Shown one piece after another: positions 1-64,000 of a stretch of 64,000 bases of DNA. The stretch covers positions 8,554,985-8,618,984 of the forward strand of contig NC_057753.1 in NCBI RefSeq assembly GCF_004010195.1, read 5' to 3'. This stretch comes from Chiloscyllium plagiosum (Eukaryota). The notes beneath the pieces were generated by a model. The model was not told the origin of the DNA. It saw nothing but the letters and a program-made list of their open reading frames with translations, and ran no database searches. The position numbers and the translations under genes were made by a program. Within the stretch, counting starts at the first letter, position 1, and the number at the start of each line of letters is the position of its first letter.

Positions 1-292
1 TATTTTATTTTCAGCTTCTGGCAACAAATCGCCACAAATCGATCAAAGGTGAAAGCGACCGTCAACCAAGCAGAACTGTCTATGGCTTCATAAATTAATG
101 CAACACGAAGACTGCATACTGGTGTGATGGACAGAAAACTCAATGGGAAGAAAATTCCAGCAATGCGACTTAATATCACAGCCGTGATAATGACCTGGAG
201 ATCTGTCACTGCCATGGACACCAGATAATATGTGATACATTTAGAGAGCCCGCATGTTTTTCGAGACAATATCAGTATTACCGCCAAGTTTG
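1..292 (-). CDS. GPR139-like orphan class A GPCR, paralogue A, coding exon 2 (partial; continues past the left edge)
   Basis: Reverse-complement translation after the acceptor ttttttttcgattgcag: (A)NLAVILILSRKTCGLSKCITYYLVSMAVTDLQVIITAVILSRIAGIFFPLSFLSITPVCSLRVALIYEAIDSSAWLTVAFTFDRFVAICCQKLKIK. It contains TM1 N, TM2 MAxxD, C3.25 and a DRF motif, with no stops. The phase-1 junction is compatible with the exon at 2649-2718. Confidence 0.9.
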
Positions 293-1246
293 CTGCAATC
301 GAAAAAAAAGCGAGGGTAAAATACAATTAATATCCTTCAGAGATCGAACATGAAAACATGTAGTTTAACCTCCATTAAAAATTTTCAGAGCGTTTAATCA
401 ATTGTGTATCTCCAAAACAGTGACCTGTATTAACAAATATCTCTTGTATAGCAATGTTTCTCCATTTGGTACAATCAACCAACTTAAAAGTAAATTAGCA
501 TAATGATGCAGCGAAGTCAGTAGTGAAATATAATAGAAACACGTAGTTAATACAAAAAAATCTTCAAAACCAAAAGTAGAATAGGTAAAATGAATTACCA
601 AATGGGAGAAAGAAATCGAGGAATAATGCGTCGAATGTGTGACACGCAAGGAACAAAAACAACAGTAAGTCAAGAAAAATTATATGTTTTGAGTTTCAAA
701 AATAGCGATATTCATCAAATTATTTGTTTGAAATGCCTGTAATCAACTTTGACAAAACAAAAACCTCATGAGGAACGGCAGAACGGACAATTGACATATT
801 TTTGAGTTTGCAATGAAAAGACTGGTTAGAATGCAACAAAGTATCTAACTCTTCCCATGACAGTCACTTGGAACTGTTCATGTCGAACTGAACCACTGTA
901 GTGTAGAGATAATGAGATTTCATTCAGAGAAATGTCTGTTTCTAAATGTATAATCTTAAAGTTGCAAGGTGTTGTGTGAGATTTTTATTCATATAATGGG
1001 AATTTGAAATCAAAAATTCTAGTCTCAGTTATGAGACATTTCAACTGCTCTAGCTTTATTCATTCTAGAGAGAAAAAGAACGAAAATGATACTGGTTGCA
1101 ATATTACGAAGTGAACGGAGCAAGAAAACGTTTGTGGAGTTCAATGCATGGAAGTCAGAAAATCAACTAATCGGGAGAACAGAACAAAACGACAATGTGG
1201 TCTAACCAGCTACGATTCGTACAGAGATTCTTGGAATTGATTGTTC

Positions 1247-1338
1247 AGAGTCGAGAGTGTGGTGCTAGAAAAACCCGTCAGGTCATACAACATCCGAGGA
1301 GCGGGAGAATTGACGTTTTGGGCATTAGCCTTTTCAGA
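1247..1338 (-). mobile_element. Penelope-like element terminal fragment with decayed hammerhead core, in the intron of paralogue A
   Basis: The minus strand reads ctgaaaaggctaatgcccaaaacgtcaattctcccgctcctcggatg..., resembling the termini at 16070-16235 and 49111-49220. Confidence 0.6.
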
Positions 1339-1606
1339 TCGAGTCAAATGTTAATGATTCTATAAACGAGAACTCCTGCATTTATCCTGCATCCTGCCAA
1401 AACCACACCTCCTTTGATACCAATTTAATGACTTCATTCGGTAAATTTATAAGCCAGTTAAACATTTAATTCTCCTGTTCAATCAGTTAATTGTGTGAAG
1501 TGCTACGCTACAATGAATGTCAGCAACAGAATATAACTTGCGTTTAACATGTCTTGAGCAGGAGTACAAATAACATAATAAATGTACACTTACACTGAGA
1601 CGATTA

Positions 1607-1842
1607 TAGAACATAGAACATAGAACAATACAGCACAGAACAGGCCCTTCGGCCCACGAAGTTGTGCCGAACATTTGTCCTAGCTTAAGCACCCATCCAT
1701 GTACCTATCCAATTGCCGCTTAAAGGTCACCACTCCCACAGGCAGCGCATTCCATGCCCCCACCACTCTCTGGGTAAAGAACCCACCCCTGACATCTCCC
1801 CTATACCTTCCACCCTTCACCTTAAATTTATGTCCCCTTGTA
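1607..1842 (-). mobile_element. CR1 LINE 3' end with (ATAGAAC)n tail
   Basis: Tandem 7-bp tail and 3' UTR nearly identical to the copy at 52814-53015 in the opposite orientation. Confidence 0.85.
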
Positions 1843-2648
1843 ATAAGGTATCACATGTAACATTAAAAATGCAACAATAGATATATGTTTATTAAGGCAT
1901 GATAGATATTATGAAACGTAAGTCCCAAAAAACAAGCCAGTAGCACACGTTAATTACATATGATAACTGAAAGAATATTCACACAGAGCAACTGTGACAT
2001 TAACACAGTGGAATTAAACTTGTAACATAGCATCTCTACAGTCACTGAATAGTAATAGAATTTTGAACAGTAAAATATAACCTGTTTTCACTGTGAAATT
2101 AGTTTCAGATTCATGAAGCACCCAGCCCAAGTAGTCAAAATCAAAAGTGCGAGAAATTACATTTGTGAAGGGTGAATATTTTTCCCCTCATAGGTAAATG
2201 ACAAATAATTAAAGCGGGATAAAAATAATGTGAATAGAGTAAGTTGTTGAGAACCGGCTTGATGTCCTAACTTCTCCACATGCGTGTCATAATATGTTGG
2301 AACATGTTCATGAGAAATAATGCATAGACTAAGCTAATGAATGGGGAAGCGACGCTGCTACTGTAGAATACTTTTACATATGTTAACAATAAATTGTGGG
2401 AATGAACGAAATAAATTATACCCTCAAAATGTGGAACTAGTATGCTTCATAAGATATATAAGAAAAAAAGTAATGTGAAGAAAAACGTCTGCCAATTAAG
2501 AAGAAATTCTGGCTGAACTAGCTAAACATGCTGTTATAGTTCAGGGAATGAATACCAGTATCGCAAAGATTCGCAAGTGGTGATTCGGAAAACTAATTCA
2601 ATAAACCAGCACTTCATGAAACTCCAATTAAATAAAATATACTTCTAC

Positions 2649-2718: not shown

Positions 2719-2766
2719 TTCTATAGAAGTTCTATGCATTTGTTACACTCCGGTTAACATTGTCAC

Positions 2767-2773
2767 ATTTATA
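2767..2773 (-). promoter_or_regulatory. Candidate TATA box of GPCR paralogue A
   Basis: TATAAAT on the minus strand about 50 nt upstream of the ATG at 2718. The context is AT-rich, so a chance match is possible. Confidence 0.25.
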
Positions 2774-4289
2774 CATTATTTCATGCTCTAGGGATACAAT
2801 TAGAAAGTCTGATATTTTCTCCTTGATTACATTTTTATTTGTAATAAATGAGTGTAGTTGCTGTGACGATGGCATATACCTTTTCAGACAAAGTTACGTT
2901 TCCTGAACTGGATTTGAATAAAACCTCAAGTGAGGTATTCAGCGACAACAGAATGGTGCAATTATATGTGCTTACACAATATGAAACGGGCCTGAAATTA
3001 TAAAGGGAACAATCAATGCAGAGGCATTTTCTAATGACCACAAAGTGTAAATAACACTTCTTTGAATCCCTGTTATCAGTATTGATTCAAGTCTCTGACT
3101 ATTTTATGGTTTTATGGGAACAGGTCGTAGAAATGGAGCAAGGATGCCAAATCCAGTAAACACTTCTGCCCCAGTGATGCTGCCAGTTGAACACAGCTTC
3201 GTCCCAACAATCTGAATGAGAGTCTAATCATTAATGTTATCGTTATTGCATCAAAAAAAATCTTTTTAAGCATGCGCATTTGTTGAATAATTTGGATATT
3301 TCCAAAAGTTTTATCAGGCATCTAAACATTCAGTGACACATAAATGCACGCTGTAAAATTCCTATGTGAAAAGACTCAAATTGATTTGTATTCAATAAAT
3401 TGATGCATCATGTGCTATTAAATGTTAATGTCCATCATTAACTAAATAGTTCATGGAAGTATATTAAGCTGCCTAATACGTTTGTGCTCACTGCGGTGCC
3501 AAGTGTCCACTACATTCCCAAGCAGGACAAGTTCTATGGGTAAATCAATTTTGTGGATAATGTTCTTTGTGGTGGCATAAATTTGCTGAGAGGAAAACAG
3601 ACTGGCTCACAAAGAGATCTCCAGGAGATAAGTTTTATTATTTTTTCCCTAAAGGCATCGGACCTCAAAATGAATTGGGCATCTTCCAGTTATTTATTTC
3701 ATTACGCAAGATCTCTGCGAGTGCTTATACTTCTGCTTGAGCAACGAATAGCCCAGAAGACTTAACACTGAGTTCTCCAATTTCAAAATGCTCCCGTCCC
3801 ATCCCACGACTCCGTTTCCAGCCCTTCCCCCGCCTTTTATTCCTCTCATTAACCAATCCTTCCAGATACCAACTGAATCAATTCCTCCCATCGAACAACC
3901 AGGTCGTACCGCTTACCTGCGTTCACCTTTTCCTACCTCATTTAATCAGTTGAGAGGTAATTTTATAGGATGGGCTGAAGGGCTAAATCTGTTGATGATA
4001 TTTGACAGCTGCATGATCTTGAATGAGCCATATGATTTTTTTTTCTGTGCCACAGATAGCATAATGAAAATTGATTTTGTGTACTGCCCATTTGTTACAC
4101 TATATACGAAGGAGTTTCGTTACAAGTCATCAAACTTCACCTTGGAACGGGATAATGCAAGTTGGTAGGAATGAACCTAAGCCTGCAGACCATCCATCGA
4201 TCTAAGTGTCCACGACATGGAGGAGGGATTGGGGGAGACCTAGCCTTGACGACACACGTTACATTCAACAACCAAATATATGAAACAGA

Positions 4290-5390
4290 TCAATGAAATA
4301 CCTTTCGTCTTTCCCATTTCTGGGTTCATAGCAGAAACAGCGATGCAAAGATTGAAACAAACAGCTCTCGGCAAATCCAGTGCAAACTCTGGATCATATA
4401 CGAAGATGACACTTTTGAAAAAATCATTAAGAGAATACACACCAGATTAGCAGCACCGTAATTGCAAGGATCAGATTTCTGAAAGAGAAACAAGCCAACA
4501 ATCGACTCCCATTTCTGGATGTGTACAAGAACACAGAATATTGAATGCACCACAAAAGTGAGCAAGAAAGCCACACATAACGACCATGTCCTTAATTACT
4601 GTAGAAACACCCAAACATGTGCAAGAGAGGCTGCAATTATCCCTACTCAAATGGGCTTCAGTGTACTGCAACACTCCGACCGTCGAAGGGAAGAACAGCT
4701 CTACAATGTATTTGTCAAGAACGATATCCCTGCAACTTCATCTGCCGCTGCCTAACAGACGAACAACACGTCGAGGGCATGCCACGACATAACTCACTGG
4801 CCTCGCTAACTTACATGAAAAGGTATCAGAACTGATTGCCAGACTTCACCGAACAGTCGGATTCACAACAGACCATAAACTGACAGCCAGACTCAGACAT
4901 CTACTCACGAGAACAAAATACCCTGTACCCATCATGTACAAGACAGACATAATTTGCAGAATTCTATAGAAAGACTGCACAAAACACTACAAATTGGAAA
5001 AAAAGCATGCAACTAACAACCTGCATCCATGTACAGCAACTTCCACTAAATGTCACAACCAGTTGTGATAACCAAGACCATGAATTCGATTGAGATTGCA
5101 CAATGATCATAGGAAAAGCTAAACGTAGGTCAGCCACAGAATTCCTAGAAGCATGGCAGCCAGCCACAGACCGCATCAACAAGCACATTGATCAAGATCC
5201 AATATACCGGTCACTACAGTGAACGACTGGAAACGGCAGCTGGAAGAACAAATACGGAACCAAATACATTCCATAAGGTGCAGTACAGCAGCGTTTCACA
5301 AAAGGACCCAAAGCACCAAAGAGGTCAACTAGACAGGTGATGAAACGTCTGCAAATCGAATTCCCATCTCGGTGGACATACCCACTTGAC
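4290..5390 (+). mobile_element. Decayed Penelope-like element (RT C-terminus, GIY-YIG remnant and terminal repeat)
   Basis: Frameshifted pieces LWIIYEDDTF, NNRLPFLDV, KATHNDHVLNY and EFLEAWQPATDRINKHIDQDPIY. The 3' part is homologous to 61296-61650. Confidence 0.8.
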
Positions 5391-5892
5391 AGTAGAGATG
5401 GATGTCGTTCTTATGTGCACGAAATTACTCCCCAACCCCTTTCGTTTACCCGTAGTTGATTAATACCAACTAACCCATTCTACTTGATGTGGAATGGATA
5501 AACCTGATTTTTCCTTTTAGAAAATAGAAACACTGAAGTCTGAACCTATTTGTAGAATTTCAACTTCGAATTATAGTGATTCATGAGGCAACCTCAACCC
5601 ATAAAGCCATTCATCAATAACATTTCTGTGTTGGAGAAGTAGAGTGGGAAAACATCATTGCAGTGAACATCAGGAATCTCGAATGCACTGAGCCTGGGTA
5701 CACTTCCATACATCCTGATAAAAATTACGTTAAATCTCAAATGCCTTGATATTCTAAAACGTCTAAATGCAATAATTACCTTAACATTTAAAGGGATTCT
5801 GGGAAGTAATAAAATGCATGCACACAGTCTCAATGGTTTCAGAAGAGGAAAATGGAAGTGACTTCGATGTAACAAACACAATGTTGATTTAG

Positions 5893-7345
5893 ATTCATAG
5901 AGTCGTATGGAGACAGCATGGAGGCAGGCCCATTCGCCCAGACTGGTCCGTGCTGACAAAAGTGTCTGTCCACGCCACCCGCATTATCCTGCTCTTGGTC
6001 CATATCCTTCTAAGCATTTGCGATCCATGTATTTGTCCAAATGCCTTTTAATAGTTCTTGATGTACTCGACTCAATCGCTTCCACTAGCAATTCATTCCA
6101 TATGTGTACCAACTTCTGTGTAAAAAACAGTGGCCCCTCGGGTTCCCTTTTATTCTTTCCCCTTGAACCTTACACTCATGCCTTCTTATCTTCTCTTCCT
6201 CAATCCTGGGAAAAATACTGAGTACATTCATCCTATCCATGTCTCTCGTGATCTTATACAGCTCTACACGACCCGCCTCCCTCAGTCTCCTATACTCTGA
6301 AGAAAAGTGTCCCAGCTTGTCCGATATCTCCCTATAACTCAGACTTCTAAGTCCAGGGAACATCCTTGTAAATTTCTTCTGCATTCTTTCCAGCTTAATA
6401 ACATCCTTCCTAAAGTAAGATGAACAAAACTGAGCACAATACTCTAATTGCATACTTAGCAACGTCCCGTGTAACTACAACTAAACTTCACAACTTCTAT
6501 GGTCAATGCCCTGATTGATGAATTTCAGCATGTGAACTGGCCTCTCCATCGGCGACTCGACTTTATGAGGACTGTGAGTCTGAAGTCCAAGATCACTCTT
6601 TTACACTACTCATCTTAAAGTTGTGTCATTCACCCTGAAACACCTAACTGATTTGATTTTCTAAAATGCATTACCTCACATTTATGTACATTAAACTCTA
6701 TTTTCCATTTCTCAGGCAACTTTCCCAGCTGATCAAGGTTCTGCTGCATCTTCTGATAACTTTCCTAACTTTGCACGATACTGCCTATTTTCCTGTAATC
6801 TGCAAACTTACTAATCATGCTTTGTACGTTGTCATTGAAAGCATTGATACAGATAGCAAACAATAATGGGCCCAGCAAAGAACCCGAACGCATTCCACTA
6901 GTCACAGGCCTCCAAACCGACAAGCAGCTTTCCATTATTATCGTCTGCTTCTTATCATCAAGCCTATTTTGTATCGAATTTGCCAGCTCGCCTTGGGTTC
7001 CATATGATCTAAACTTCCAGAGCAGCCTACCATGTTGAACGTTATTAAATGCCTTATTTGAATCCATGTACACTACTCCTACATCTTTGGTCTCGTGAAC
7101 ATTGCTGGTCTCTTCATCAAAGAACTCTGACAAATTTGTAAGGCATGACCTTCCAGATACAAAGCCATGTTGTCTATTCCTAATCAAAACCTGCTTTTCC
7201 AAATTTTTGTTCATCTCATCCTTCAGAATGTTCTCAAGAGACTTACACACTACAGATGTTGAGCTGACGAATTTATAATCTCTAATATTTTCTTGGCGGC
7301 ACTTCTTGAGTAATAGCACAACATATGCTACACCTCAGTCTTCCA
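5893..7345 (-). mobile_element. CR1 LINE, 5'-truncated and decayed (RT region to 3' tail)
   Basis: ORF 6765-7319 contains QHGFVSGRSCLTNL, VYMDSNKAF, VTSG..GSLLGPLLF and SKFAD; ORF 6085-6462 contains LEYCAQF and LERMQKKFTRM. Confidence 0.9.
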
Positions 7346-7359
7346 GGACCAATATGTAT

Positions 7360-8965
7360 TTGTCAGGCAGGAAAGAAGTGGTCGAGCGAGAGTGCCACGG
7401 TTTATTAAAGAATTTGTATCTCTTGTCAAGAGGAAAAAGAAGTATTATGTAAAGATGAGACGTGAAGTCTCAATTAGGGCGCTTGAGAGTTACATGTTCG
7501 CCAGGAAGGACCAAAACAGACAGTGAAGAAGAGCCAGGAGGGGATACAAGAATTCTTTGGCAGGTACAATCAAGAAAAACCCTAAAGCTTTCTTTCAGAA
7601 TGTCAGGAATCAAAGAATGACGAGAGTAAAGTTAGTGCCAGTCAAGGTCAGTATTGGAAACTTGGACGTGGTGTCCTAGGACATAGGAGAGGAGCTAAAT
7701 GCATATTTTTCGCCAGTATTCACACTGGAAAATGACAATGTTGTCAAGTAGATTACTGAGATACAGGCTATTAGTCTAGATGTGGTTGAGTTTCATAAGG
7801 AGGTGGTTTTGCAATCCTTGAACGTGTGAAAATAGATAAGCACGCTGGTTTGGATAAGAGCTTTCCTTGGATTCTCTGCTAAGCTAACGATGAGATTGTA
7901 GAATATTGAGCTTGGATCTTTATGTTATCATTTTCTGCAGGAATAGTCCAGAAGACTGGAGAGTAGCAAACGTTACCCACTTGATCAAGAAAGTGACTAG
8001 GGACAACACTGCTAATTATTGATCAGTGAGCCTTGTTTCAGTTGTAGTTGAAGTGTTGGAAATGATTATAAATGATTATATGATTATAGGATTTATAATC
8101 ATATCGAAAGGATTGATTTGATTAGAGGTAGCCAACACGGTTTTGTGATAGGTAGATCGCGCCTCGCGATTTTTAAGAGCTGGGCTGAGTGGCGGCAAAT
8201 GCAGTTTATTGTGGAAAATGCCAGGTGAATCATTGTTGAAGGAGTAACAAAAACACAGTATTCGGCTAATGGTAAGATTCTTGGTCGTGTGGATGTGCAG
8301 AGAGATTTGGGTCTCCATGTATGTAGATCCCTGAAAGTTGCTACCCAGATTGATAGAGTTGTTAAGAAGGCATACGGTGTGTTAGCTTTTATTGTTAGAG
8401 AGATTGAGCTTCTGAGCCGTGAGGTCATGTTGAAGCTGTGCAGACCTCTGGTGTGGCTGCACTTGCAGTATTTCTGGAAGGAAGGGAGTATAAACATTGG
8501 AAAGGATGCAGAAGAGATTTATCAGGATATTGCCTGGTATGGAGAAAACATCTTACGAGGAACGTCTGAGGGATTGAGGCTGCTTTCATTAGATATGAGG
8601 TTGAAAGTTGACTTAATAGAGACATACAAGATGAGCAGAGCTATCGATCGGATGGAGAGTGAGAGTCTTTTGCATCGGATGGTGATGGCTAGCACATAAG
8701 GACATACATTTAAATTGGGGGATGATGGATATCGGACAGATGTCAAAAGTAGTGTCTTTACTCAGAGAGTAGTAAGGGCATGGAATGTTCTGCCTGCAAC
8801 AGTAGTAGACTCGTCAACTTTGAGGGCATTTACATGGTCATTGGATAAACATATGAATCATAATGGAATAGTGTACGTTAGGTAGGCTTCAGATTGTTTT
8901 TATGGGTCGGTGCAACGTCGGGGACTGAAGTTCTTGAACTAGGCTGCAATGTTCTATGTTCTAAG
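7360..8965 (+). mobile_element. CR1 LINE, decayed ORF2 with internal deletion and 3' tail
   Basis: QRDLGLHVCRSLKVATQIDRVVKKAYG (ORF 8289-8699); tail gttctatgttct near 8960. Confidence 0.85.
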
Positions 8966-10640
8966 AGGAGGTTCTGGATATCTTAAAAGGCATAATCGTA
9001 GATAAATTCCTAGAACCTGATCAAGTCTACCCAAGGTATTATGGAAACTTGGGAAGTAATTGCCGGCCCCTTGCTGAGATATTAGTATCATGACAGCCAC
9101 GGGTGTGGTGCTAGAGAATGGTGGTTAGATAAAGTTGCCCAAATATTTACGAAAGACTGCAAGGAAAAGCCATGACCCTACATACTGGTGATACTGACAT
9201 CAATAGTGAGTGCTTTGTTGGGGGGGGATTCTGAGAGACAGACTGCATATGCATTTGGAAAGCTAAGGACTGAGTTAGACTCCTGAACATGCTTTTGTGT
9301 GTGTGGTGAATCGTGTCTGTCCATCTACATACTGGTGAGGCTGACATCACTAGTGATACATTGTTGGAGGGGACTCTGAGAGATAGGATCCATATGCATT
9401 TGGAAAGCTAACGACTGATAAAGAATCCTGAACATGCTTTTGTGTGTGCTCAATCTTGTCTGTCTATCTTGACCCAGTTTTTGAAGAAGTGATCAAGAAG
9501 GTCAATGAAGGCAGACAATAGATTTGATCTACACGGACATTCACAAGGTCTTCGACATGGCACAAGTTGGTAGACTATTTAGTAGGATGATTATTATGGG
9601 ATCAGGAACAGCTGGCGGTAGGAGACAGAGTGTGATGGTAATCGCTTGTTGTTCAGACTGGAAGTTTGTGATCAGCGGTATGCCACAAAGATTCATTCTA
9701 GATCGACTGTTATTCATTATTTATATATATATGATTTGGATGAGAAAGTGTGAGATATTGTCCCAAGTTTGCAAATGAGACAAAAATTGTTAGACAGTGA
9801 AGAAATTTATCTCAAAGTACAAAGAGATTTATCTCTACTTTCAGTGGGCTACAGACTGGCAGGTGAAGTTTATTTTTTATGAATTGAGAGACTGATATAT
9901 TTTAGTAATGAAAACCAAAGCAGAACTTACAACAGTTAATGATACAGCCCTAAGAGGGCTTGTTGAACAGAGAATGCAAATGGTGCAGGTATATAGTTCT
10001 GTGTGAGTGGTGGCACAGATAGAAAATATGGTGAACGTGCTGGGCACACTTCATTGGTCAGAGTACTGAGTGTAGGAGTTAGGACATCATGTTACCCCTG
10101 CACAAGACATTCAGAAGCCTAGATTTGGAGGACTTCATACAATTCTGGTCGCTCCACTATCGGAAGGGTGCTATCAAACTGTTGAAGGTGCAAAAATAAT
10201 TTCATAGATTTTACTGGAAGTGAAAAGTTTGAGTTAGAATGAAAGCCTGAATAGGCTGGCACTCTTTTCTGCTGAAGTGTGGGATGTTGAGTGGTGACCT
10301 TCTAGATGTATATAAAATCATGAAGGGTATAGATAAGATGAATAGACAAGGTACTTTCCCCTAAGGGAGGTATTCCAAAAGATGAGGCATAGTTTCAACA
10401 TGAGAAAGAAAAGTTGAAAATAAGGGACTAGAGCGGCAACATTTTCACAGAGTTCGGAGAATACATAGAAAAATGTATCAAATGAAGTTGTCAAGATGAG
10501 CACAATTAGAGCATTAGCAAAACACTTGGGCAAGTGCGTAGGTAGGCAAGTTTTAGAAAGAATGGGCAACTGTTTGGAAATTAGACGACGTTAACTTAGC
10601 AATCCTGGCCGAGTTGGACCAAAGAGTCTTCACCCTTTCT
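8966..10640 (+). mobile_element. Older CR1 LINE fragment with an internal ~147-bp tandem duplication
   Basis: Decayed IYTDIHKVFD and RRQSVMV..CCSDWKFVISGMPQ motifs; 9178-9324 is repeated at about 9325-9470. Confidence 0.75.
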
Positions 10641-11049
10641 GAAAGATACACATATGGCCTTTCAAGATGATTCCTGCACGATGTTCTCTCTTTGTACAGC
10701 TGTGACTTCCTTCTTGATCAACATTCTAACTACCACAACACTTTTACATCTCTCGTATCACTCTTGAAAAATCTATGTCTTAATAAATTGAACATCCAGT
10801 CCTGTCCTTCTGTTGACCGATTTTCTGTAATGACGACAGCATCGTAGTTACATGTAATATTCCATTTTGTAATCTCATCTCGTTTATGTGTTATTCTGCT
10901 TCCATGAAAATAAATACATTCCAGAGCTCAGTCCTGCTGTGTTCATTACTCTGGACCTGTTATTCTTCATATTATGCATTCTCGATTTAGCTTCTCTCTT
11001 CTATTCACACATTCTATATGTTGAATTATTTCTCTGGTTTTCTTCCCTC

Positions 11050-19543: not shown

Positions 19544-19544
19544 T

Positions 19545-52356: not shown

Positions 52357-52484
52357 GTGGAAGTATCACTCAATATTCACTTAAAAATACAAAGAGACGC
52401 AGAACATCCCTCGAGAAATTAAAATTTAATCATGCAAATTCAAAGTTGCGGCAGCAAGACAAATGTCTTCCTTTATTGCTCGCA

Positions 52485-53699: not shown

Positions 53700-55640
53700 A
53701 GGAGCATCCTAATACAGTGCATAAGATGATATCATGCGGATCGACCCACCATTGGAACGGCAGCAGCTGATGTTCTGGTTACTGTAACGGGACCCTCTTT
53801 CCTCGGCTCGTTCCACTCTCTCCAGAAGGACTGTACATACACCAGTTTTCCAGATCCAATACGCCCATTCCTGTTACGAGAAACTGGTTCCCTCAGCATT
53901 TCCATATGTCGATAGACTCATAAATCATAGTTAGCTGTTGCATATACTGCATAAATTCAAGTTCCAATCGTTCCAAGTCACACCCGTCAAATGGACCTCT
54001 CCAGTTAGGCACTGACATAGGTCTACCGGTAAACATTTCATGCAGTGTCAAGTTAGTCAAACAGTTAGTCTGCGCACGGTAGTCCATTATTAATAGCAGC
54101 AGTGCTTCAAATCAGGTACGATAGGGATTTGCACAAATTGTAGTAAACTCAGCTTGGAAAGGACTAACAATCTGTTCCACCACACCCTGCGACTGGGGAT
54201 GATACACACAGTCAAACCTCTGATTAATCCGCAAGGTCAGCAGCACCAACTGAACCACCTTCTGGGTAAAGGCAGACCCATGTTCCGAACTGATCTCAGA
54301 TGGTATCCAAAACCAATGAATATCTTCAGTTGTCAAAAACATCAACACAGCGCCTGCCCCTGAGTCTCTTGACGGGGTTGCTTCTGCACATCTACAAAAC
54401 CAGTTATTGACCACAAACATATACATCTACTTTCCCACCGTCCTTATCAGGACCACATAGTCGATCACCAAATCCTGCAAATAAAGTGACCAAAAGCCAT
54501 CCCCAATTATGCCTCTCTGCACTTCACCTCAAGCACAGTGATCCAAGGCATGTGCCTCTGAGATAAGAATGGGCAACAAAGGGGTAGGTGCCACCCACAA
54601 ATCTTCCTCTGTGCGCCGCAGGCTTTCTTGGTTACGCCTGGTGTCTCTTTGTCCCCACAACAGCTACTCAGCTAAGGTTGCCTCACCTCGTATCGCAATG
54701 ACGTTGGCTGTGGATGGCTCCGGATCTAAACACACCTGGGTGCAATGACAGCCGAAGCTACCCAGAAGCCAGTCTAGCCACTTCATCTGCTGCCTGATTA
54801 CCCTTCACCACCAAATCACAACCTACCACGTGTGGCCGCTATTTTATAATAACTAACGCTTTAGGCATCATCAATGCAATCGCCAACTCAATAATCTGCT
54901 GACAATGTTGTATGGGATCCCCATGGCTCTTCCGGAAGCCCCTTTGCTTCCAGACAGGGGCTTCCAGACAGAATCATACAAATGACAGACTCCATGGGAA
55001 TCGGCAGAATCAGTATTTATATCTGCCTTCTCACCTTCCACCAACATTCAGGCAGCAGTGAGGGTCGAAAGCTCAGCGAGTTGTGCCGAACAAGGCTGTA
55101 GACAGGCCTCCAATATAACCGTCTTTAACTGAGACTCCTCCTGCCGGACAGCTGCAAACACTGCATGAATCCCATCTTGTCTTTTTTGGCATGAACCATC
55201 TACAAAAATGTTATCATCTGTCCACCTGTAGCAGGCCTGGGAGCTCGAGTTATAGCCTCAATCTGATCAGATGCTATCACCTTACTGCCCTTTGCTATCA
55301 ACCTACCCAAATACTTATTCTGCTGCTTACAGGATTGCAGCTACTGCCTGGACACCTTATGGCCGCCATATGCTAACCGCTCCAAAAGAGATATGATGTC
55401 ACGCTCACATTGTCCTTGACTCTCAGAGCAAACGAGCAAATCATCAGCATAGTTGATTAGTGTACTCTCCAATGGCACACACTCCAGCTCCAACTTCAAC
55501 ATCTGATTAAATACATGCGGCGAATGCTTAAATCCCTGTGGTACTCGATTATGAGTACACTGTCTTCCTCTGAACGTAAAAGCAAACAAATATTGGCAGT
55601 CCTCCACCAACGTAACATTAAAGAAAAGCATGAACACAAG
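53700..55640 (-). mobile_element. Endogenous retrovirus pol remnant (RT, RNase H, integrase), probably class I/epsilon-like
   Basis: RT: LFAFTFRG..RVPQGFKHSPHVFNQ..INYADDLLV. RNase H: IFVDGSC..SAQLAEL..INTDS..KGNQAADE. Integrase: IPSEISSEHGSAFT..CVYHPQSQGVVE. Stops and frameshifts present. Confidence 0.8.
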
Positions 55641-55739
55641 TCTATACTATCTATTGCCTCATCGCATCATAAATGTCTTTATCCCAGCTACAGATCTTGC
55701 TGTTCGGTGTGTAAATGTCTATTTCTAACGTTAAAGTGA

Positions 55740-56830
55740 CTTTAACCGAATTGTACTCACCTACCTTCACATTTAAAATCTGGCCCAGATTGTGGCCTCG
55801 CCTCCTGTTGGCCTATCTGTGCTCGCTATGAAGAAAGATTGAGAGGTTAGGTTTATTTTCATTAGAAAAAAAGGCGATTGGGGTGGGGGGGACCTGATTG
55901 AGGTTTACAAAATCATGAATGGTATAGACAGGGTGGATAGAGACAAACTTTTTCCCAGGATGATAGATTCAATAACGAGATTTCACGCTTTCAAGGTGAG
56001 AGGTGGAAAGTTTAAGGGGGATACACGCGGCAAATACTTCACACAGGGGGTGGTGGGCGTTTGGAACGCGTTTCCAGCAGAGGTGGTAGAGGCAGGCACG
56101 ATAGATTCATTTAAGATGCATCTGGATAAATGCATGGGTAGGTGGGCAGCAGAGGGATACAGATGCACAGGAATTGACCGACAGGTTTAGAGAGTACATT
56201 GGGATAGGCTCAGGCTTGGAGGGCCGAAGGGCCCGTTTCCGTGCTGTAAATTTTCTTTGTTCTTTGTATCTATATACTGTGTCAGGAAACCCTCCTGCAG
56301 ATATATCGTTTCCAGTCTGTGTTAGAAAAGTAAAAGCCCCCATAACAATTCCCCTGTTACTTTCACTCCTATCCAGAATTATCTTTGCAATCCTTTACAC
56401 TACACTTTTGATTTTTTTTAACGCCTCTCCTTAACTGTTTCTATACTCAGCCCATACTACCTCAGTCGAAGTGTCCTCATCAAATGCCCGTTTTGCTACT
56501 CTAAGACTGTCCTTGACTAATAATGCCTCATCTCCCCCTTTTACCAACTTCCCCTATCTTACTGAAACATCTAAACCACAAAACCTGAAACAAACATTCT
56601 GCGAAATGGCCTCAACATGGAAGTCCCTGGTACAAACCTATGCTGCAAATTCACACACCATATTCGGGATTCTCCTGGCGTTGATGTCGACTCATTTGAA
56701 ACCATCTTCCTGCCAGTCGGTGGACTCCTGTGACCTTGATACCTTATTCATGACCTCACTACCCTCATCTTCCTCTACATTGGAGCTAGAATTCCGGTTC
56801 ACATCCCCTTGATGAATTAGTTTAAATTTT
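55740..56830 (-). mobile_element. CR1 endonuclease remnant (-) interrupted by a CR1 3' end (+, about 55820-56266)
   Basis: Inner: GIDRVDRDKLFPR..YFTQGVVGVWNAFP with a (TTCTTTG)n tail; TATCT is repeated at both junctions. Outer: IVMGAF.F and GFK*VDINAR remnants. Confidence 0.75.
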
Positions 56831-57500
56831 AAGGAGATGGTTAGGTGCTTGTAGAGGAAATGGAATTATTGTATAATGTAGATACTGAAGGGATGACAGA
56901 GGTAACGATGAGTGGAGGAGTTGGATGAGGTTATAGAGAAAAGGAAGGGCATCGGGGCTAAAGGATATTACAGAGATAGGAAGTGCTGTAGGTGCTCGAG
57001 TGAGTTAAAGCAATACAGATGGCTGGGAAAGATTGTAGGGGATTAGAAAGAATGAGGTACAGCGGGCTTGGAGGAGGTTAAAAAATATGAATGATGTAGC
57101 AGCTGGAGAAAGTTGCAGATAAAAGGATGGCGTAGAATGTGAAGGAAGCTACACTGATATGGCGGGATACACTCCTATCCAGAAGAGTGTACAGAGACAA
57201 GGAGTGCACATGCTGCGATGGTTACAGCCAAAATTAACCAGTTAGGCACTGGAGAAAGTTACAGAGCTCAGGATCTGGGGTCTGGGGAATGTTACAGAGA
57301 TAGTGAAAGAGTGCAGGTGCTGGAGGAGATTATAGAGGTAGGAAGGGGAGTAGGTGTGGGAAGAAAATCAGAAATTAGGGCAGCTCTAGTAACTGGAGCA
57401 GATTACAAAACTAATGAGGGCTGTAAGGGTGGGAGGAGATTAATATAGAATGATAAATGTAGGAGCTGGAGAAAGGTACAGAAATAGAAGGGTGTAGATG
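56830..57500 (+). repeat. Degenerate purine-rich tandem array with a recurring gttacagagatag-like core
   Basis: Variants ggttatagaga, attacagagatagg, gtgtacagagacaagg, gttacagagctcagg, gttacagagatag and ggtacagaaatag, with strong G/A strand skew. Confidence 0.55.
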
Positions 57501-59034
57501 ATTGAATGAGTGATTTATTTATTGTCACTTGCATCTTACAGTCAATTTTACAGTAAAGTTGAAAAGCTTCAACTGTCAGAATAATCTGGCACAATTTTTA
57601 AGAATAGAAGAATGAAAAGAATAAAAGATACATGGGAAAGATAGTCCTGAGCCGACTCAAGAAACGCATGAGCCATTGGAAACGAGGAACCTTGGCTCGA
57701 CTGCCAGACCAAGCTGCCACCGCCGTTTTGTCAAGAGTCCCTCCCCGACATCCCTCCTCCACAATGTCGCCTTGTCTTGAAATATCTGCTGCTACCAACT
57801 CAACCTCTGATCATGGGACATGTTTTTCTGCTACTGCCACCTCCGGCTCTGAACGTCGAGGGGATTTACTGCTGCTGCTGCCTCCACAGTCGTTGTCACT
57901 ACCACACTCAGTCAACATGAGGAGCCGCACCTCCCGCTGTTTCTGAAAGCTAAGAAGTGTTGCCATTACGCGCATGGCCTGCTTGAGATGCCACGCCAAT
58001 TTGCTGACTAATCCACCACAAAAGACTTCAAAGAAAGAAGAACAAAAGATAAAAATTGAAAGAAAAAGGGCAGAAGTGAAAAGAAAATAAAGGAAGTGTG
58101 TGGGAGAGTATGAGCCCTGGGCAAGACCCGTAAACAGCCCGAGGAAAATTGCCTCAATATTTACAATTTCTCACATACTCTTGAAGTTTTGATATTTAGA
58201 TGGCTAGTCAAATTCAGTTTCTGGTGCATGATGGTCTCCAGGCAGTTGATGGTATGCCTGCAACTATGCCAATGCCATTTAATGATGACAGAAAATGGTT
58301 AGATTTTCCATATGTAGACATTGCCATGTGGATGAAACAAATTTTGAACGGCAACTGTCAGCCGAGAACCACGTGTTGTCCAGGCCTTTCTGCATATGGC
58401 GAGAGAATCCTTCAACATCTGGAAGCTGCGAATGATGCTCAACATCATGCAATAAACGAATATCCCCACTCTGGCCGAAAGTTAAGGGAATACTCTTTGA
58501 TCAAGCAGCTAAGGATGATTGGGCCGAAGATACTAAATTACTACATATTGATTGAGTATTTCTGCATTTCTTTCAAAGTTCTATGAAGTTATGAACTTCA
58601 CAAAATTCTCTAATGCTTATTTGAATCTTGTTCCCTTTTGATGTTGGCCAGATGTGTGGCTGAACATAAAGGAAAGATGCCTGGATTATCTATCATTGAA
58701 GTTGCCCTTTTTCTTTCTACTGTGTGGCGCGCTATCTCTCCAACCGACGCCCCAACACTTAACATAATCTGCTGGATTTTTTCTTTAGCCTTTACAATTC
58801 GGGCAGAGTGGGAGGTGTTCACAAATCTTTTTTGTTGATTAACGTGATCTATGTATAGCACATTACTTCACACCTAGACATACAGTACATTCTCCTCGTT
58901 GTTTTTGTAATGTGGTGCTATTTCATCAACGGTTGAAAAGATTGTCATCAGCAGCATGCATCATTACCAATACTTAAACTGAAACCATGAGATGTCATGA
59001 TAGACATAAGCAATATTGAGGCCTCCCAGGTCCT

Positions 59035-60320
59035 TTATTTGAATATTATCGGGAAATTGATGATTACGTTATGACAGCAGGCTGCATAAACCTCACATGC
59101 TATTGCTTATGTATAGATTAAGACAACATGGTCAGTTGTTGTATTTGAAGTAAATAGACAAATTGGGACATTTTTATGTTCATCTGGCGGAACTAAATCA
59201 AAGACGGATAAACAAATTCTCTCCTCAGTTCCATACATTGCCCCCACATCATTTTATCTTTAAATCTTAATTAATAAATGAAAGGCATTGGCTTAAAGGT
59301 AGCCAATAAAACACAACGAGAAAGACAGGATGAACTTATTTCTGAGGCATGTCTCACAATCTTGGCACAATTCGTTACATACATCTAAGTAAAACACTTA
59401 GGGTGAACTTAACTAGGCGTGTCGGATTTCTTTCTCGTCAGTATGCCTCGATCAAAACCCAATAACCCTCCCACGATTTTAAACGTTCTTGTATAATTTT
59501 GACATAATCTATCGGCTTGCCTATCCATTTAAGGAACTATCAACAATTGAACTAGATGCTCATATATAAGTTTATGGGCATGGAGTATGTATAATCAAGA
59601 ATTACTCTTTATTCAATAAAATAAAACGTGATCATATAACAAAAACATGCTCCCGTTCTTCAGTTTCAAAAATGTCATTGCAAAGCAATTGGTTAGCTTC
59701 TCCATTAAATGACAGAAAGTGGAATTCATGATGATATAGCATAACCTGTTTGTTCAGTGGCTTTAACTAATGTAATGGTAATTGCCCTCTGCATGTCTCC
59801 TGAAGCGTGAACGTCACGTTAAAAGGGGATATTTCCTGAAAACCATTCAAAGCAATTTAGCACTCCTGGATAAGTATTGATTCTTCGCAGAGAAAATGCA
59901 CGCTCCTCCCACAGGACTGCCATATGCTATTTACTATACTTCCCTTGCTTTAATCGCTGTCCCAGGTAAGATATGCATATACTTAATGAATTTATCTCAA
60001 AGACAATGGTATATGAATAAGAGAAATTTAACTTTTATGTGTCTAAGGCACTTATTAAAAGTGTTCTTTAATTCAGCAATCAGTTCTGTTGAATGTCGCT
60101 GTAGAAGGACATACCGAATTTAGAAAAGCTAGAAACTGCATTTATGTAAATGTTATCGAGAAATTGATGGCTAAGTTATGACAGCTGGCTGCATATACTT
60201 CACATGCTATTGCTTATGTATAGAATAATATAAGGCCATTAGTTGTTGCATTTGAAGTGAACAGACAAATTGGGTCATGTTTATGTTCATCTGGCGGAAC
60301 GAAATCAAAGAATGATAAGA
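59035..60320 (+). repeat. Diverged direct repeat of about 175 bp (about 59035-59210 and 60141-60318) flanking exon 1 of paralogue B
   Basis: Shared blocks gaaattgatg, gttatgacagc, cacatgctattgcttatgtataga, agttgttg.atttgaagt, agacaaattggg and ttatgttcatctggcggaac.aaatcaaaga. Confidence 0.85.
59896..59965 (+). CDS. GPR139-like GPCR paralogue B, coding exon 1
   Basis: MHAPPTGLPYAIYYTSLALIAVP+G|gtaag with a canonical donor at 59966. In-frame TGA at 59878 upstream. Homologous to the exon at 2649-2718. Confidence 0.88.
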
Positions 60321-60911
60321 TTGACGTTTGAAAAATTGTTTCCGTTTAGACCAATTTAAATTTGGAACTAATGTTGCCTGTAATGTCAACTTAAAAAGTC
60401 AAAAATCAGAGTTAAGGAATTTCTTTAGTCAATAATCAGAATTCTCTGAATCAAAATGGATAACGCAGCCATTTTAAGAAACTCATATTTTGACATTTCT
60501 ACTTCCAAACTAATGCACTATTTAGAGTCATAGAATAAAAGAACAATAAAGTAACATTAAAGTATGGAAGAAGTCCCTTTGGATATTGTGTCACCTCATA
60601 TTTTTCAGGATATCATTCCATTCTCATAGTTCTGCCTATCTCACTTGGCAATCTATGTTGTCACTTATTCTAAGATTTGTTCCTTACTATTTCACACAAC
60701 ATAAATTTTCAGTGTCATCTGCTAACTTAGCAGTTGTTCCGCCTAACATCATTTCTAGAGAACACAAATGAGGATTTTTTGGCTTACTGGACTCGTGGCA
60801 TTACCATTACACCATTGCTTTTCTATAGGGCACTGAAGCAACACTTAATACTCACATCGGGTTTCGAACCACTTCTTTTTATATGATAGATAAACAACGC
60901 AATAAAACTCC

Positions 60912-61701
60912 CGTTCGCCGAGCTGGACGTTTTTGTTGCAAACGTTTCGTCCCCTGTCTAGGTGACATCCTCAGTGCTTGGGAGCCTCCTGTGAAGCGCT
61001 TCTGTGGTGTTTCCTCCGGCATTTATAGTGGCCTGTCCCTGCCGCTTCCGGTTGTCAGTTTCAGCTGTCCACTGTAGTGGCCGGTATATTGGGTCCAGGT
61101 CTATGTGTTTGTTGATGGAGTTTGTGGATGAGTGCCATGCTTCTAGGAATTCCCTGGCTGCTCTTTGTTTGGCTTGCCCTACAATGGTAGTATTGTCCCA
61201 GTCAAATTCATGTTGCTCTTCGTCTGCGTGTGTGGCTACTAGGGATTGCTGGTCGTGTCGTTTCGTGGCGAGTTGATGTGACATCAACGACACGACACGA
61301 AACGACATGACCAGCTATCCCTAGTAGCCACACACGCAGACGAAAAGCAACATGAATTTGACTGGGACAACACTACCATTATAGGGCAAGCCAAACAAAG
61401 AGCAGCCATGGAATTCCTAGAAGCATGGCACTCATCCACAAACTCCATCAACAAACACATAGACCTGGACCCAATATACCGGCCACTACAGTGGACAGCT
61501 GAAACTGACAACCGGAAGCGGCAGGGACAGACCACTATAAATGCCGGAGGAAACACCACAGAAGCGCTTCACAGGAGGCTCCCAAGCACTGAGGATGTCA
61601 CCTAGACAGGGGACGAAACGTTTGCAACAAAAACTTCCAGCTCGGCGAACAGAACCACAGCAACGAGCACCCGAGCTCCAAATCTTCTCACAAACTTTGA
61701 A
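60912..61701. mobile_element. Palindromic Penelope-like insertion (two inverted 3' ends) with 12-bp TSD CAATAAAACTCC, in the intron of GPCR paralogue B
   Basis: Arms 60913-61267 and 61296-61650 are near-perfect reverse complements and encode EFLEAWHSSTNSINKHIDLDPIY on both strands. TSD at 60900-60911 and 61702-61713. Confidence 0.93.
61586..61625 (+). ncRNA. Minimal type I hammerhead ribozyme motif, sense to the GPCR pre-mRNA (mirror copy at 60938-60977, minus strand)
   Basis: gca-CTGAGGA-tgtcacct-agac-aggggac-GAAA-cgtt-tgc: CUGANGA and GAAA cores, stem I gca/tgc, stem II gtc.cct/agg.gac, palindromic ACGT stem III and a GUU site. Confidence 0.75.
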
Positions 61702-62116
61702 CAATAAAACTCCAACAAAAATCAGCATCGCTGCTGTGGAAGATGCACCTACATTATAATAACACTGGAAATGGCCTCTGCATTATCCAACTCCACACAA
61801 TTCCAATAATTCAAAACTTGCATAAGATAATTACTTAATTAAAAAGAACTGGTCGTCATGTTTAATAAGTAACATGCTGCGACAAGCTATCAGCATCATG
61901 TTATCGAATGAGAATTATAACTTAATGTGTATTAATAGTAAAATATTTTGATGTAAATTACAGTACTAATTAAGAAACCATAATCTCGAGATGCTTTCCA
62001 TGTGAAAGCCTTACTCACATTTGAAGTTTTCAACATTATTGGCACACACGCAATTTCGGGATTTAAAAAAAAATCTATTTCTATTCATTGCAATGTCTTT
62101 GTTACCCTGCCAATTT

Positions 62117-62667
62117 AAGAACAAAGAACAAAGAAAATTTACAGCCCAGGAACATGCCCTTCGTCCCTTCATGCCTGAGCCGATCCAAATGTACTGTCGA
62201 AACCTGTCGGTCAATTCCTAAGAATTTGTAACCCCACCTACGCATGCATCTGTCCAGATGCATCTTAAATGCCTCTTCCACCTCTGCCTGCAAAGGGTTC
62301 CAAACGCCCACCACCCTCTGTGTGAAGTATTTGCCCCCCCCCCCCCCCCCGCCCCCTTTAACTTTTCACTTCTCACCTTGAAAGCAAAACCTCTGGTTAT
62401 GGAATCCTTTACTCTGCGAAAAAGCTTGTCTCTATCCACCCTGTCTATACCCTTCCTGATTTTGTAAACCTCGGTCAGCCCCCCCCTCAATCTCGTTTTT
62501 TCTAGTGAAAATAAACCTAAGCTACTCAACCTGTCTTCATAGCTAGCACCTTCCATACCAGCTAATATCCTCGTAGACCTTCTCTGCACCTTTTCCAAAG
62601 CGTCCACTTCATTTTGGTAATGTGGCGACCAGAACTGTAAACAATAATCTAAATGCGGCCGAACCAT
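62117..62667 (-). mobile_element. CR1 3' end with (AAGAACA)n tail in the intron of paralogue B
   Basis: VRPHLDYCLQFWSPHY..LEKVQRRSTR; same family as 55820-56266. Confidence 0.88.
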
Positions 62668-63685
62668 GTATTTTTACTTTCTTATTTTCCAAATATAGGG
62701 AATAGGTACGTTACAATAATAAAGTCATTTACGTGACACAGTTAACTTTAAGTTCATTATTTTCCAGCAGCTGATATCTTTGTTTGTATCATCCAGCCAC
62801 GTTGAAAGTCGTATTTTTAATTGATCTAGAAATAAAGTCCACAGTATGGTTGCACTTCATCTGCCCTCACAGCAATTAAATATTTTTTCATGCACTGGCT
62901 GACATGCATGTATTCATAGTTGTGCAATTTCAGTTATGTCAGTCACGCTTTAATCTCTTAGTCTTAGATTTATCACTTTAAACCCACACTCTAAGACCTT
63001 AATGAATGGTGCAAATATCCCTGGCTGATGTTTTAAGTCTGTGGGATTTGTGGCATTCTTTCTTCCATGCTTGCATACTTCATGTTTAAAGAAGGACGAT
63101 GTCTTCTGGGTAGCATGGAGATTCTAGAATTTTAACCCATGTCACAATTGTTCTACAAGTGAGTTAAAGGCTGCCAGGCTACTCACAGGACATGGTACAT
63201 AAATATTGATCACTCAGTCAGACAAGATGAAATAGCTCAGCTACATTAAGCACCCGATGAGAAGGTTACATCCGAAAAATGGCTTCAAAATCTCAGTTCT
63301 GTTCTTTGTCATATTGATGAAAACGTTTTGTATTTGTTTGCACCATTGTTAACATCTTCTTTATTTGACTCTGAAAGGAATGAAAATAAATCTATGTTGT
63401 TACCTTATTAAAATGTTGATCATTTTAAAAGAAAATTTGCAAATATGTTAAAATCCATCAAATCAAATATATATTGTGCTATCATTTCTATTTGTCCCAT
63501 CAGTTGGCTTTCTTCTTCCATCCTTTCTAACTTAAATGATCAGTTTTAGCTGAAACTTCAACAAATGTCAATATTTGTTTACTTAAGTATGGCAATTGAA
63601 CAAGTGCTAAAACATTAAATAACGTATTTCATTTCGCTCTCTCTCCCAAACCCATCTTTGTCTCTGTATTCACTCCTCTTGACAG

Positions 63686-64000
63686 TTAACTTTCTGGCAA
63701 TTGTTATCCTAGTACGACGAAGGTGTGGTTTGTCAAATTGTGTTACACTATACCTGGTGTCAATGGCAGCAACAGACCTCCTGGTCATTATCACTTCCGT
63801 GATCATCAGCCGTCTCAGTGAGATTTATTTCCCAGGTAGTTTTTTGACCATTACACCAGTGTGTAGTCTCAGCATTACACTAACTTATATAGCACGAGTC
63901 TCTTCTGTCTGGTTAACAGTTAGTTTCACTTTTGATCGATTCATGTCAATTTGTTATCAAAACCTGAAAGTGAAATATTGCACTGAGAAAACGGCAACTG
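63686..64000 (+). CDS. GPR139-like orphan class A GPCR, paralogue B, coding exon 2 (partial; continues past the right edge)
   Basis: After a pyrimidine tract and ...cactcctcttgacag: (V)NFLAIVILVRRRCGLSNCVTLYLVSMAATDLLVIITSVIISRLSEIYFPGSFLTITPVCSLSITLTYIARVSSVWLTVSFTFDRFMSICYQNLKVKYCTEKTAT. TM1-TM3 and DRF motif present; the frame is open. Confidence 0.9.

Follow-up and report, generated by a model that had tools for sequence, protein, structure and literature searches.

In a stretch of 64,000 nucleotides of Chiloscyllium plagiosum DNA (hereafter designated the window), two receptor genes pointing away from each other (genes A and B) raise the question of whether they are shark counterparts of GPR139 and GPR142, a specially arranged pair, or two members of a larger repertoire, and of what such receptors would detect. 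The features of the window are as follows.

2718-2649, minus strand: gene A coding exon 1 (70 nt, GT donor), encoding the N-terminus and the first half of TM1
293..2648, minus strand: gene A intron, phase 1 (2,356 nt, GT..AG)
1..292, continuing past the window edge, minus strand: 5' part of gene A exon 2 (AG acceptor), from the end of TM1 to intracellular loop 2
2719..59895, no strand: repeat-rich interval of LINE ORF2-like and self-repeated sequence
about 41266..41442, minus strand: remnant of a decayed third family member, covering TM7 and helix 8 and broken by two in-frame stop codons
59896..59965, plus strand: gene B coding exon 1 (70 nt, GT donor)
59966..63685, plus strand: gene B intron, phase 1 (3,720 nt, GT..AG)
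63686..64000, continuing past the window edge, plus strand: 5' part of gene B exon 2, from the end of TM1 to the start of TM4

Structure of genes A and B

The earlier note had described two divergent two-exon GPCR genes, each with a 70-nt exon 1 and a phase-1 intron interrupting TM1, and the coordinates and splice sites agree with this description for both genes. Recomputation reproduced the gap-free alignment of the spliced products with 74/120 identical residues (242/362 nt), and the ATGs, said to lie about 57 kb apart, are separated by 57,178 bp; the N-termini of both genes are free of N-glycosylation sequons, also as claimed. The window holds the TM1–TM3 region of each gene, the 3' parts lying beyond it. 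Genes A and B are class A (rhodopsin-like) GPCRs: the class A anchors of TM1–3 are found in both, and the exon 2 pieces match Pfam 7tm_1 with E values of 1.4e-7 (gene A) and 2.2e-9 (gene B), the scores of the two pieces being 37.6 and 31.7 bits at a curated cut-off of 30.5. Among 180 proteins of the family to which they belong, N1.50, D2.50, C3.25, D-R3.50, P5.50 and Y7.53 are present in more than 90%. Moreover, the spliced N-termini match the database gene models of relatives over their full length from residue 1 (81% in either gene), and hence the splice reading is not due to chance. Gene A has an alternative in-frame ATG at 2739, 7 codons upstream, and the intron of gene B contains high-copy repeats (about 60.9–62.7 kb). 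A predicted model of the close relative P0005 has the full seven-TM fold (pLDDT 88.8), in which TM1 would begin at residue 6.

A large chondrichthyan family

The family automatically labelled 'probable GPR139' is a large expansion across sharks, rays and chimaeras: of 665 candidates, 480 belong to it at E<=1e-5, and clustering at 50% identity gives 119 groups with E<=1e-30. All 120 family matches listed are of elasmobranch origin (19 species), and the 20 deep representatives that were looked up are all chondrichthyan, two of them from chimaera. The earlier note had named a mere handful of copies genome-wide as grounds for rejecting its idea; counting gave 39 or more different proteins in a single shark, and the copies there probably number far more than 39, all these counts being lower bounds taken from a capped sample of database proteins. 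By hand count, 24 of 36 matches in Heterodontus, 13 of 13 in Rhinoraja and 11 of 12 in Hemitrygon fall on one contig in each case. The family tree, from which 83 of the 299 fetched proteins were left out as too partial, contains shark–ray orthologous groups alongside lineage bursts; these, together with the relic in the window, indicate birth-and-death evolution, so that the expanded and clustered family proposed in the earlier note holds.

Genes A and B nest within this expansion. In trees built without true GPR139 or GPR142 sequences, gene A groups with P0101/P0102 (support 100/100) and gene B with P0005/P0012 (100/98), both inside a 10-row group (100/98) of the monophyletic chondrichthyan family (91/95). 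The sister clade is an amphibian/sturgeon orphan receptor (100/99), which displaces GPR139 as the nearest kin that had been suggested. None of 20 N-termini of this apparently single-copy relative carries a sequon, and short sequon-free N-termini also occur in coelacanth, teleost and amphioxus relatives. The near-absent N-terminus, which had been taken as a sensory hallmark, is thus an ancestral trait and no evidence for a sensory repertoire.

Relation to GPR139, GPR142 and GPR210

Judged from sequence, the family would belong to the wider GPR139/142/GPR210-like group, with GPR139 as its nearest human receptor (top match, 107 bits versus 88 for the next). Human GPR139 is also the best match among solved structures by both sequence and fold. 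A family member scored only 52 bits against human GPR139, with 21% identity in the fold alignment, versus 144 bits against the amphibian orphan. Catshark carries a GPR139 distinct from the family, 81.3% identical to that of mouse, and likewise a separate GPR142 (58.7%) (PMC13200729 supplement), and identity of GPR139 among vertebrates is 70–96% (PMC7318219). Furthermore, of the six residues of the GPR139 Trp/Phe pocket (E3x32, F3x33, H5x43, W6x48, R6x51 and N7x38; PMC7318219), at most three are kept in any of the 180 family proteins; E3x32 occurs in 0/180 and R6x51 in 6/176, residue 3x32 being I in gene A and T in gene B. With these polar residues not kept, Trp/Phe sensing does not carry over to the family. 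One-to-one orthology to GPR139 or GPR142 is refuted by the separate catshark genes, the 21% identity and the differing pocket.

Coelacanth, teleost and lamprey proteins sit next to the shark family. They are probably the named non-mammalian orphans GPR210A/B, which PMC6504862 sets alongside GPR139/142 for coelacanth, gar and teleosts, and NMOGPR or 'Orphan 139-like', listed in a table of PMC5207463. The words 'shark' and 'cartilaginous' have zero occurrences in the main text of PMC6504862, and the available portions of the GPR210A/B and NMOGPR papers describe no expansion, unlike what is seen in sharks. No GPR139-family entry is present in the supplementary files of PMC10115646 (3 files), PMC13188829 (8 files) and PMC8455134 (12 of 24 files), and no published description of the chondrichthyan expansion was found in a search that lay largely outside the subscription literature. 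The large family appears to have gone unnoticed behind an automatic label.

Divergence of the predicted ligand pocket

The pocket positions are generic ones for class A receptors and are predicted for this family. Across 180 family proteins, their relative rate was 1.00, versus 0.59 at other TM sites (p 2e-4), whereas in 22 amphibian orthologues it was 0.12 versus 0.38. Within the family the pocket was not significantly faster than other TM sites of the extracellular half (p 0.20), and the case therefore rests on the contrasts between orthologues and paralogues and with amphibians. Predicted pocket identity is 98% among the amphibians and 56% among shark paralogues. All 66 shark–ray reciprocal best pairs, a non-independent set drawn by similarity to gene B and sharing genes, retain more of the pocket than equally diverged paralogues do, with a mean excess of 0.163 that was matched by 0/200 draws in each of three controls. 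Heterodontus has 38 distinct pockets among 39 proteins, and genes A and B are identical at 3/11 pocket positions versus 71/109 others (p 0.021). The scaffold residues are conserved in more than 90% of the 180 proteins. This pattern, conservation between shark–ray orthologues and divergence between paralogues, appears to be the signature of a ligand-diversified repertoire and upholds the earlier suggestion of a diversifying one.

The interval between the genes

LINE ORF2-like and self-repeated sequence makes up at least 41% of the window. The relic at about 41266..41442 is matched by 71 of 299 family and outgroup proteins (E<0.01) and has a profile score of 20.1 bits (i-E 4.6e-6), the best match in the reversed window being 9.0 bits. 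It was absent from the earlier note. A TM2-like match beside it (41,702-41,649; E 0.7) was taken as chance, and the remaining tblastn matches in the interval stem from transposon pieces fused into database gene models. No tandem array with a period of 26 bp occurs in the window, either at TRF score 30 or in a lag scan.

Since the relic lies between them, genes A and B are not directly adjacent. Alignments of 150, 400 and 1000 nt upstream of the two genes were no better than shuffles (159, 114 and 97 of 200 shuffles, respectively, reached the score), and no promoter or intron element shared by A and B stood above shuffles. A bidirectional pair with a shared promoter is argued against by the 57 kb spacing, the intervening relic and the lack of common upstream sequence. 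Comparison of A with B gave dN 0.27, dS 1.2–2.3 and dN/dS of about 0.12–0.23; overall selection between them is purifying, and the pair is an old subfamily split. On all these grounds, the head-to-head arrangement stressed in the earlier note loses any special meaning. The locus is an unremarkable part of the chondrichthyan family.

Expression data and published receptor counts

With 2–6% of each run read, from unlabelled tissue, an RNA-like assembly and two single-cell runs gave 0 reads on the 5' exons of gene B, too thin a sample to weigh for or against expression. At the same partial coverage, these runs (X5, X6 and X7) gave 218, 0 and 1376 records over the gene B region, all repeat-derived and none of them a splice read. 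A DNA run covered 30/30 bins of 59,000–64,000. A catshark study gives 8 OR or OR-like, 3 ORA, 3 TAAR, 2 TARL and 32 V2R chemoreceptors, and its 50 top genes of a brain-plus-olfactory library include no GPCR (PMC11979771). Shark genome papers likewise note comparatively few GPCRs and olfactory families of very small size (PMC8455134; PMC11979771).

What the family may detect

We consider that genes A and B are best explained as two old paralogues from an expansion, throughout the chondrichthyans, of a single orphan receptor related to GPR139, in which the G-protein-facing scaffold is conserved and the ligand pocket varies between subfamilies. The small ligands bound most likely differ from one subfamily to the next, a step strongly suggested by the pockets. 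By descent from the GPR139 and W/Y/Famide receptor group, these ligands may be amino-acid derivatives or short peptides, and signalling might proceed via Gq-type proteins. The role would most likely be chemosensory, for outside or luminal chemicals, conceivably in the nose, taste buds, solitary chemosensory cells of skin and gill, or gut. We give this reading as a whole a probability of roughly 45%; the small size of the known shark chemoreceptor families, as described in PMC11979771, speaks for it. A bolder form is tentative: that the family arose independently out of a neuropeptide-receptor-like orphan and adds one more to the vertebrate chemoreceptor families, with sparse expression in olfactory or other sensory cells and more members than the described shark OR, TAAR, V1R and V2R genes combined. 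If true, it would resolve why animals whose chemical senses are keen seem to have so few receptors. The site of expression can be tested directly with existing tissue RNA-seq.

The expansion and pocket pattern would be just as much at home in an immune or a reproductive receptor repertoire. Immune surveillance by receptors on leukocytes or barrier cells that recognise peptides from microbes or damage, resembling FPRs or MRGPRs, would draw on that same pattern and on the rank of peptide and chemokine receptors after GPR139 among structural and sequence matches, and the absence of MAS1-related receptors in cartilaginous fishes, reported in PMC8455134, would leave a niche. The chemokine-receptor matches are generic (15–21% identity), and a pocket kept across the shark–ray split is easier to reconcile with stable ligands than with an arms race against pathogens, so that we regard this role as unlikely.

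Similarly doubtful is a set of receptors for a diversified range of the shark's own reproductive, endocrine or neuronal peptides, the paralogues having divided ligands or tissues among themselves. W/Y/F-amide neuropeptides activate the protostome receptors that are sister to GPR139/142 (PMC8557429), and for a snail an expansion of FMRFamide-like receptors is reported, selected members of which were detected in reproductive glands and larval ectoderm (PMC11589774). The near-invariant pocket of the amphibian relative is also what one endogenous ligand would lead one to expect. Tens to hundreds of pockets, with ongoing bursts and relics, would nevertheless need a matching expansion of peptides, and we know of none.

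That the copies arose mostly by neutral duplication in repeat-rich clusters, many being redundant or decaying, is improbable. The repeats, the relic and the many partial proteins are in keeping with it, but the low dN/dS between A and B, the conserved scaffold and the subfamily pockets retained between sharks and rays largely refute it for the family; for A or B it could still apply, should the 3' part of the gene prove broken. Finally, that A and B are the shark GPR139 and GPR142 or recent duplicates sensing Trp/Phe, as database names and the structural match to human GPR139 might suggest, can hardly be maintained beside the separate catshark genes, the closer amphibian orphan and the differing pocket residues.

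Comparison with known systems

The chemosensory reading preferred here likens the family to vertebrate chemoreceptor repertoires, a likeness in gene evolution and predicted pockets. The OR, TAAR, V1R/ORA, V2R/OlfC and FPR/MRGPR families combine clustered birth-and-death evolution with compact coding structure, as the shark family does, and in ORs, too, orthologues keep the pocket and paralogues vary in it. The ancestry differs from that of these repertoires, as the shark family comes from the neuropeptide-receptor-like GPR139 group; no OR, TAAR or FPR was among its best matches by profile, sequence or fold. The intron of GPR139 presumably lies at the same TM1 codon as that of the family, and most family members share with GPR139 and GPR142 an atypical TM7 without the NPxxY proline. 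GPR139 has two exons (PMC7318219), like genes A and B, but GPR139 and GPR142 are single conserved genes, whereas the shark family is a repertoire.

The next look-alikes in Atlas are the protostome FMRFamide-like/Srw clusters, exemplified by the snail (PMC11589774), which belong to the same wider receptor group as GPR139/142 (PMC8557429); these expansions are independent, lie in other phyla and are mostly unproven in function too. The amphibian/sturgeon orphan, also auto-labelled 'probable GPR139' (XP_069092602.1, Pleurodeles; RXM35349.1, Acipenser), is 35% identical to P0005 and has intracellular-loop motifs and a very short sequon-free N-terminus in common with the shark family. We know of no function for it. 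At 90% identity each named species (20 amphibian, 1 sturgeon) contributes a single cluster to it, and its amphibian pocket is near-invariant, in contrast to the many shark and ray paralogues with their variable pockets, and this apparently single-copy amphibian sister gene offers a handle on the ancestral ligand.

Receptor genes A and B and the interval between them

Recheck of the two class A receptor genes lying divergently at the ends of the window bore out their earlier description, that is, the exons, splice sites, sequence identity, ATG spacing, and absence of a sequon. The receptor features are as follows.

Receptor features in the window (coordinates; strand; description)
2718-2649; minus; gene A exon 1, 70 nt, TM1 start, GT donor
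292 to window edge; minus; gene A exon 2 (5' part), AG acceptor
59896-59965; plus; gene B exon 1, 70 nt, GT donor
63686 to opposite window edge; plus; gene B exon 2 (5' part), AG acceptor
about 41,442-41,266; minus; decayed TM7/helix-8 fragment of a third family member, two in-frame stops

Both introns are GT..AG and phase 1 and lie within TM1, the exon-2 pieces of both genes exceed the Pfam 7tm_1 cut-off, and 57,178 bp separate the two ATGs. The spliced products, in which no N-glycosylation sequon was found, align without gaps with 74/120 identical residues; the window covers only the TM1–TM3 part of A and B. Database gene models of relatives share this N-terminal start and match A and B at 81% over full length. 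A splice-acceptor-like AG with a pyrimidine-rich tract lies 2–5 nt before each ATG (2719-2740, minus; 59875-59895, plus), and the relatives' models P0081, P0106, and P0107 contain equivalent in-frame residues preceding the start. The acceptor-like sequence suggests a non-coding upstream exon, so that the true promoters may sit deeper in the interval.

The third-member fragment was matched by 71 of the 299 fetched proteins at E<0.01, and the family profile scored 20.1 bits on it (i-E 4.6e-6); on the reversed window its best match reached 9.0 bits. Repeats occupy at least 41% of the window (self-match plus LINE ORF2 similarity), and, between A and B, neither the sequence upstream nor that at the intron ends aligned better than shuffles. 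Because of the intervening fragment, the repeat-rich interval, and the lack of upstream likeness, A and B are regarded as two cluster neighbors and not as a bidirectional unit, and the head-to-head orientation pointed out in the earlier note is given no special significance.

Among the repeats, a long, nearly unbroken LINE ORF2 with endonuclease and reverse transcriptase (29544-32246, minus; assembly gap 29734-29886) is a young insertion. Broken pieces of LTR-type retroelement sequence (54115-55646, minus) match reverse transcriptase (E 1e-13) and, weakly and below the cut-off, integrase (E 8e-4). In the gene B intron, a very high-copy element is present twice in inverted orientation (60937-61700), and sequence at about 5,080-5,350 is related to it. 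Gene B exon 1 is flanked by two copies of a 178-nt segment (59034-59211 and 60141-60318) that are 85% identical. Neither TRF (score 30) nor a lag scan showed a tandem array of 26-bp period in the window. A 749-N assembly gap inside a repeat (49221-49969) may mask a further feature.

A large chondrichthyan receptor family

The family is real, large, and undescribed in the literature found. No description of the expansion was found in the searched literature, which largely excluded subscription papers, nor was there a relevant passage in the accessible parts of PMC7677710 and PMC12208981. With gene B exon 2 as a query, 480 of 665 candidate proteins matched at E<=1e-5; all 120 among the matches listed were from sharks and rays (19 species), and nearly all were auto-named "probable G-protein coupled receptor 139." One contig per species holds 24/36 Heterodontus, 13/13 Rhinoraja, and 11/12 Hemitrygon matches listed (hand count), the Heterodontus contig carrying A-type and B-type genes together as in the window. 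These matches support the expanded, clustered family proposed earlier. An exhaustive search with P0005, a full-length close relative, gave 119 clusters at 50% identity (E<=1e-30), many of them partial or fused models, and the 20 deep representatives looked up were all chondrichthyan, including two from the chimaera Callorhinchus. These counts, taken from clustered lists, are lower bounds; isoforms may inflate them slightly, but 38 distinct pocket strings occur among 39 Heterodontus proteins. Median pairwise identity within the family is 55%.

Many automatic models of the family, among them P0001, P0002, P0084, P0105, P0110, P0129, P0164, and P0173, have transposon-derived sequence fused to the N- or C-terminus, contain a half in duplicate, or go under an unrelated name (CCR3-like, GPR15-like, capa receptor-like, vasopressin V2-like). 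Because the models are chimeric or wrongly named, the family is hidden in name-based surveys.

Relatives and mode of evolution

Human GPR139 was the top match among solved structures in both sequence and fold, as "GPR139-like" had implied, but the match is weak (52 bits; 21% identity when the folds are aligned). The nearest proteins outside the chondrichthyans are those of an amphibian and sturgeon orphan (144 bits, 35%). Moreover, the catshark has its own GPR139 (81.3% identity to mouse) and GPR142 (58.7%), according to an orthologue table in the supplement of PMC13200729; the label is therefore misleading, and orthology to GPR139 is highly implausible.

A search with the orphan gave 25 matches among 1,675 candidates, namely, 20 amphibian clusters, one sturgeon, and four elasmobranch, with none from reptiles, birds, or mammals. 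Each amphibian cluster bears a different species name, which suggests a single-copy gene. The orphan (P0229 and its relatives) is conserved: N replaces D at position 2.50 in 22/22 of the amphibian proteins, and the pocket, which has basic residues in TM6, is near-invariant. In the IQ-TREE analysis (46 rows), the amphibian/sturgeon clade is sister (100/99) to a monophyletic chondrichthyan family (91/95), outside of which lie coelacanth/teleost, teleost/lamprey, and amphioxus clades. These outer clades are probably GPR210A/B (PMC6504862) or NMOGPR/"Orphan 139-like" (a table of PMC5207463), as far as the available parts of these sources go. Both trees were built without true GPR139 and GPR142, the root being a long unnamed branch.

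A FastTree analysis took in A, B, and 216 of the 299 proteins, the other 83 being too partial to include. It revealed groups shared by sharks and rays together with bursts confined to a species or lineage in Heterodontus, Heptranchias, Rhinoraja, and stingrays/mantas. Together with the decayed third member, this agrees with the birth-and-death evolution suggested in the earlier note. In the IQ-TREE analysis, gene B groups with Heterodontus and ray members (100/98), whereas the group of gene A consists of sharks only, catshark and whale shark among them (100/100). With dN of about 0.27 and dS of 1.2–2.3, A and B split long ago and are under purifying selection.

Divergence of the ligand pocket

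The pocket was defined by 29 positions, which we take to be the generic class A set, numbered from anchor residues of P0005, whose predicted model has seven helices (pLDDT 88.8). In 180 family proteins, the median rate of pocket sites is 1.00, above the 0.59 of 170 other TM positions (p 2e-4), but the excess over the rest of the extracellular half is not significant (p 0.20). The 22 amphibian orthologues show the opposite, with pocket sites the slowest of all (0.12 vs 0.38, p 3e-5). When pairs are matched at 60–70% background identity, the pocket is 98% identical between amphibian proteins and 50% identical between within-species paralogues. From 123 named near-complete proteins, 66 shark–ray reciprocal best pairs were picked by their non-pocket sites; all 66 exceed the paralogue trend in pocket identity, by a mean of +0.163, although the pairs depend on one another and B-like genes are over-represented in the sample. 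This mean was reached in 0/200 draws each of random extracellular, TM4-7-only (outside the search query), and rate-matched sites. Between A and B, 3 of the 11 visible pocket positions are identical versus 71/109 elsewhere (p 0.021), and there are charge swaps in TM3. The signaling scaffold is conserved, paralogues are many, and subfamily-specific pockets are held over the shark–ray split; a neutral expansion is disfavored and quite improbable. The Trp/Phe pocket of GPR139, comprising six residues including E3x32 and R6x51 (PMC7318219, accessible part), is not kept in the family (E3x32, 0/180; R6x51, 6/176; at most 3/6 residues).

Possible functions and comparison with known systems

Our best guess from these sequences is that the family may serve as an external or luminal chemosensing repertoire, with a probability of roughly 0.45. 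Immune surveillance and endogenous peptide signaling are live rivals, each rather unlikely. Each subfamily probably responds to a set of ligands of its own. Judging from descent, these may be small aromatic molecules or peptides, given that W/Y/F-amide peptides are bound by the receptors forming the protostome sister group of GPR139/142 (PMC8557429), and coupling may be Gq as in GPR139 (PMC7318219).

The near-absent N-terminus, formerly taken as a sensory sign, is no argument for such a role. Sequons were found in 0/91 short-N family models and 0/20 amphibian models, and the proteins of coelacanth, teleost, and amphioxus relatives begin equally near TM1; the short, sequon-free N-terminus is ancestral. 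Two single-cell runs and one RNA-like assembly (tissue unspecified; 2–6% of raw runs read; 5' exons only) contained 0 gene B exon reads and repeats only. The top 50 brain-plus-olfactory genes of the catshark include no GPCR in the accessible part of PMC11979771, which has little bearing on sparsely expressed receptors.

Public annotations already contain the family genes, but wrongly named. Passages of papers on shark genomes emphasize how few GPCRs there are (PMC8455134) and how small the olfactory families are (PMC11979771); the receptor expansion reported for a snail in the available part of PMC11589774 parallels the chondrichthyan one.
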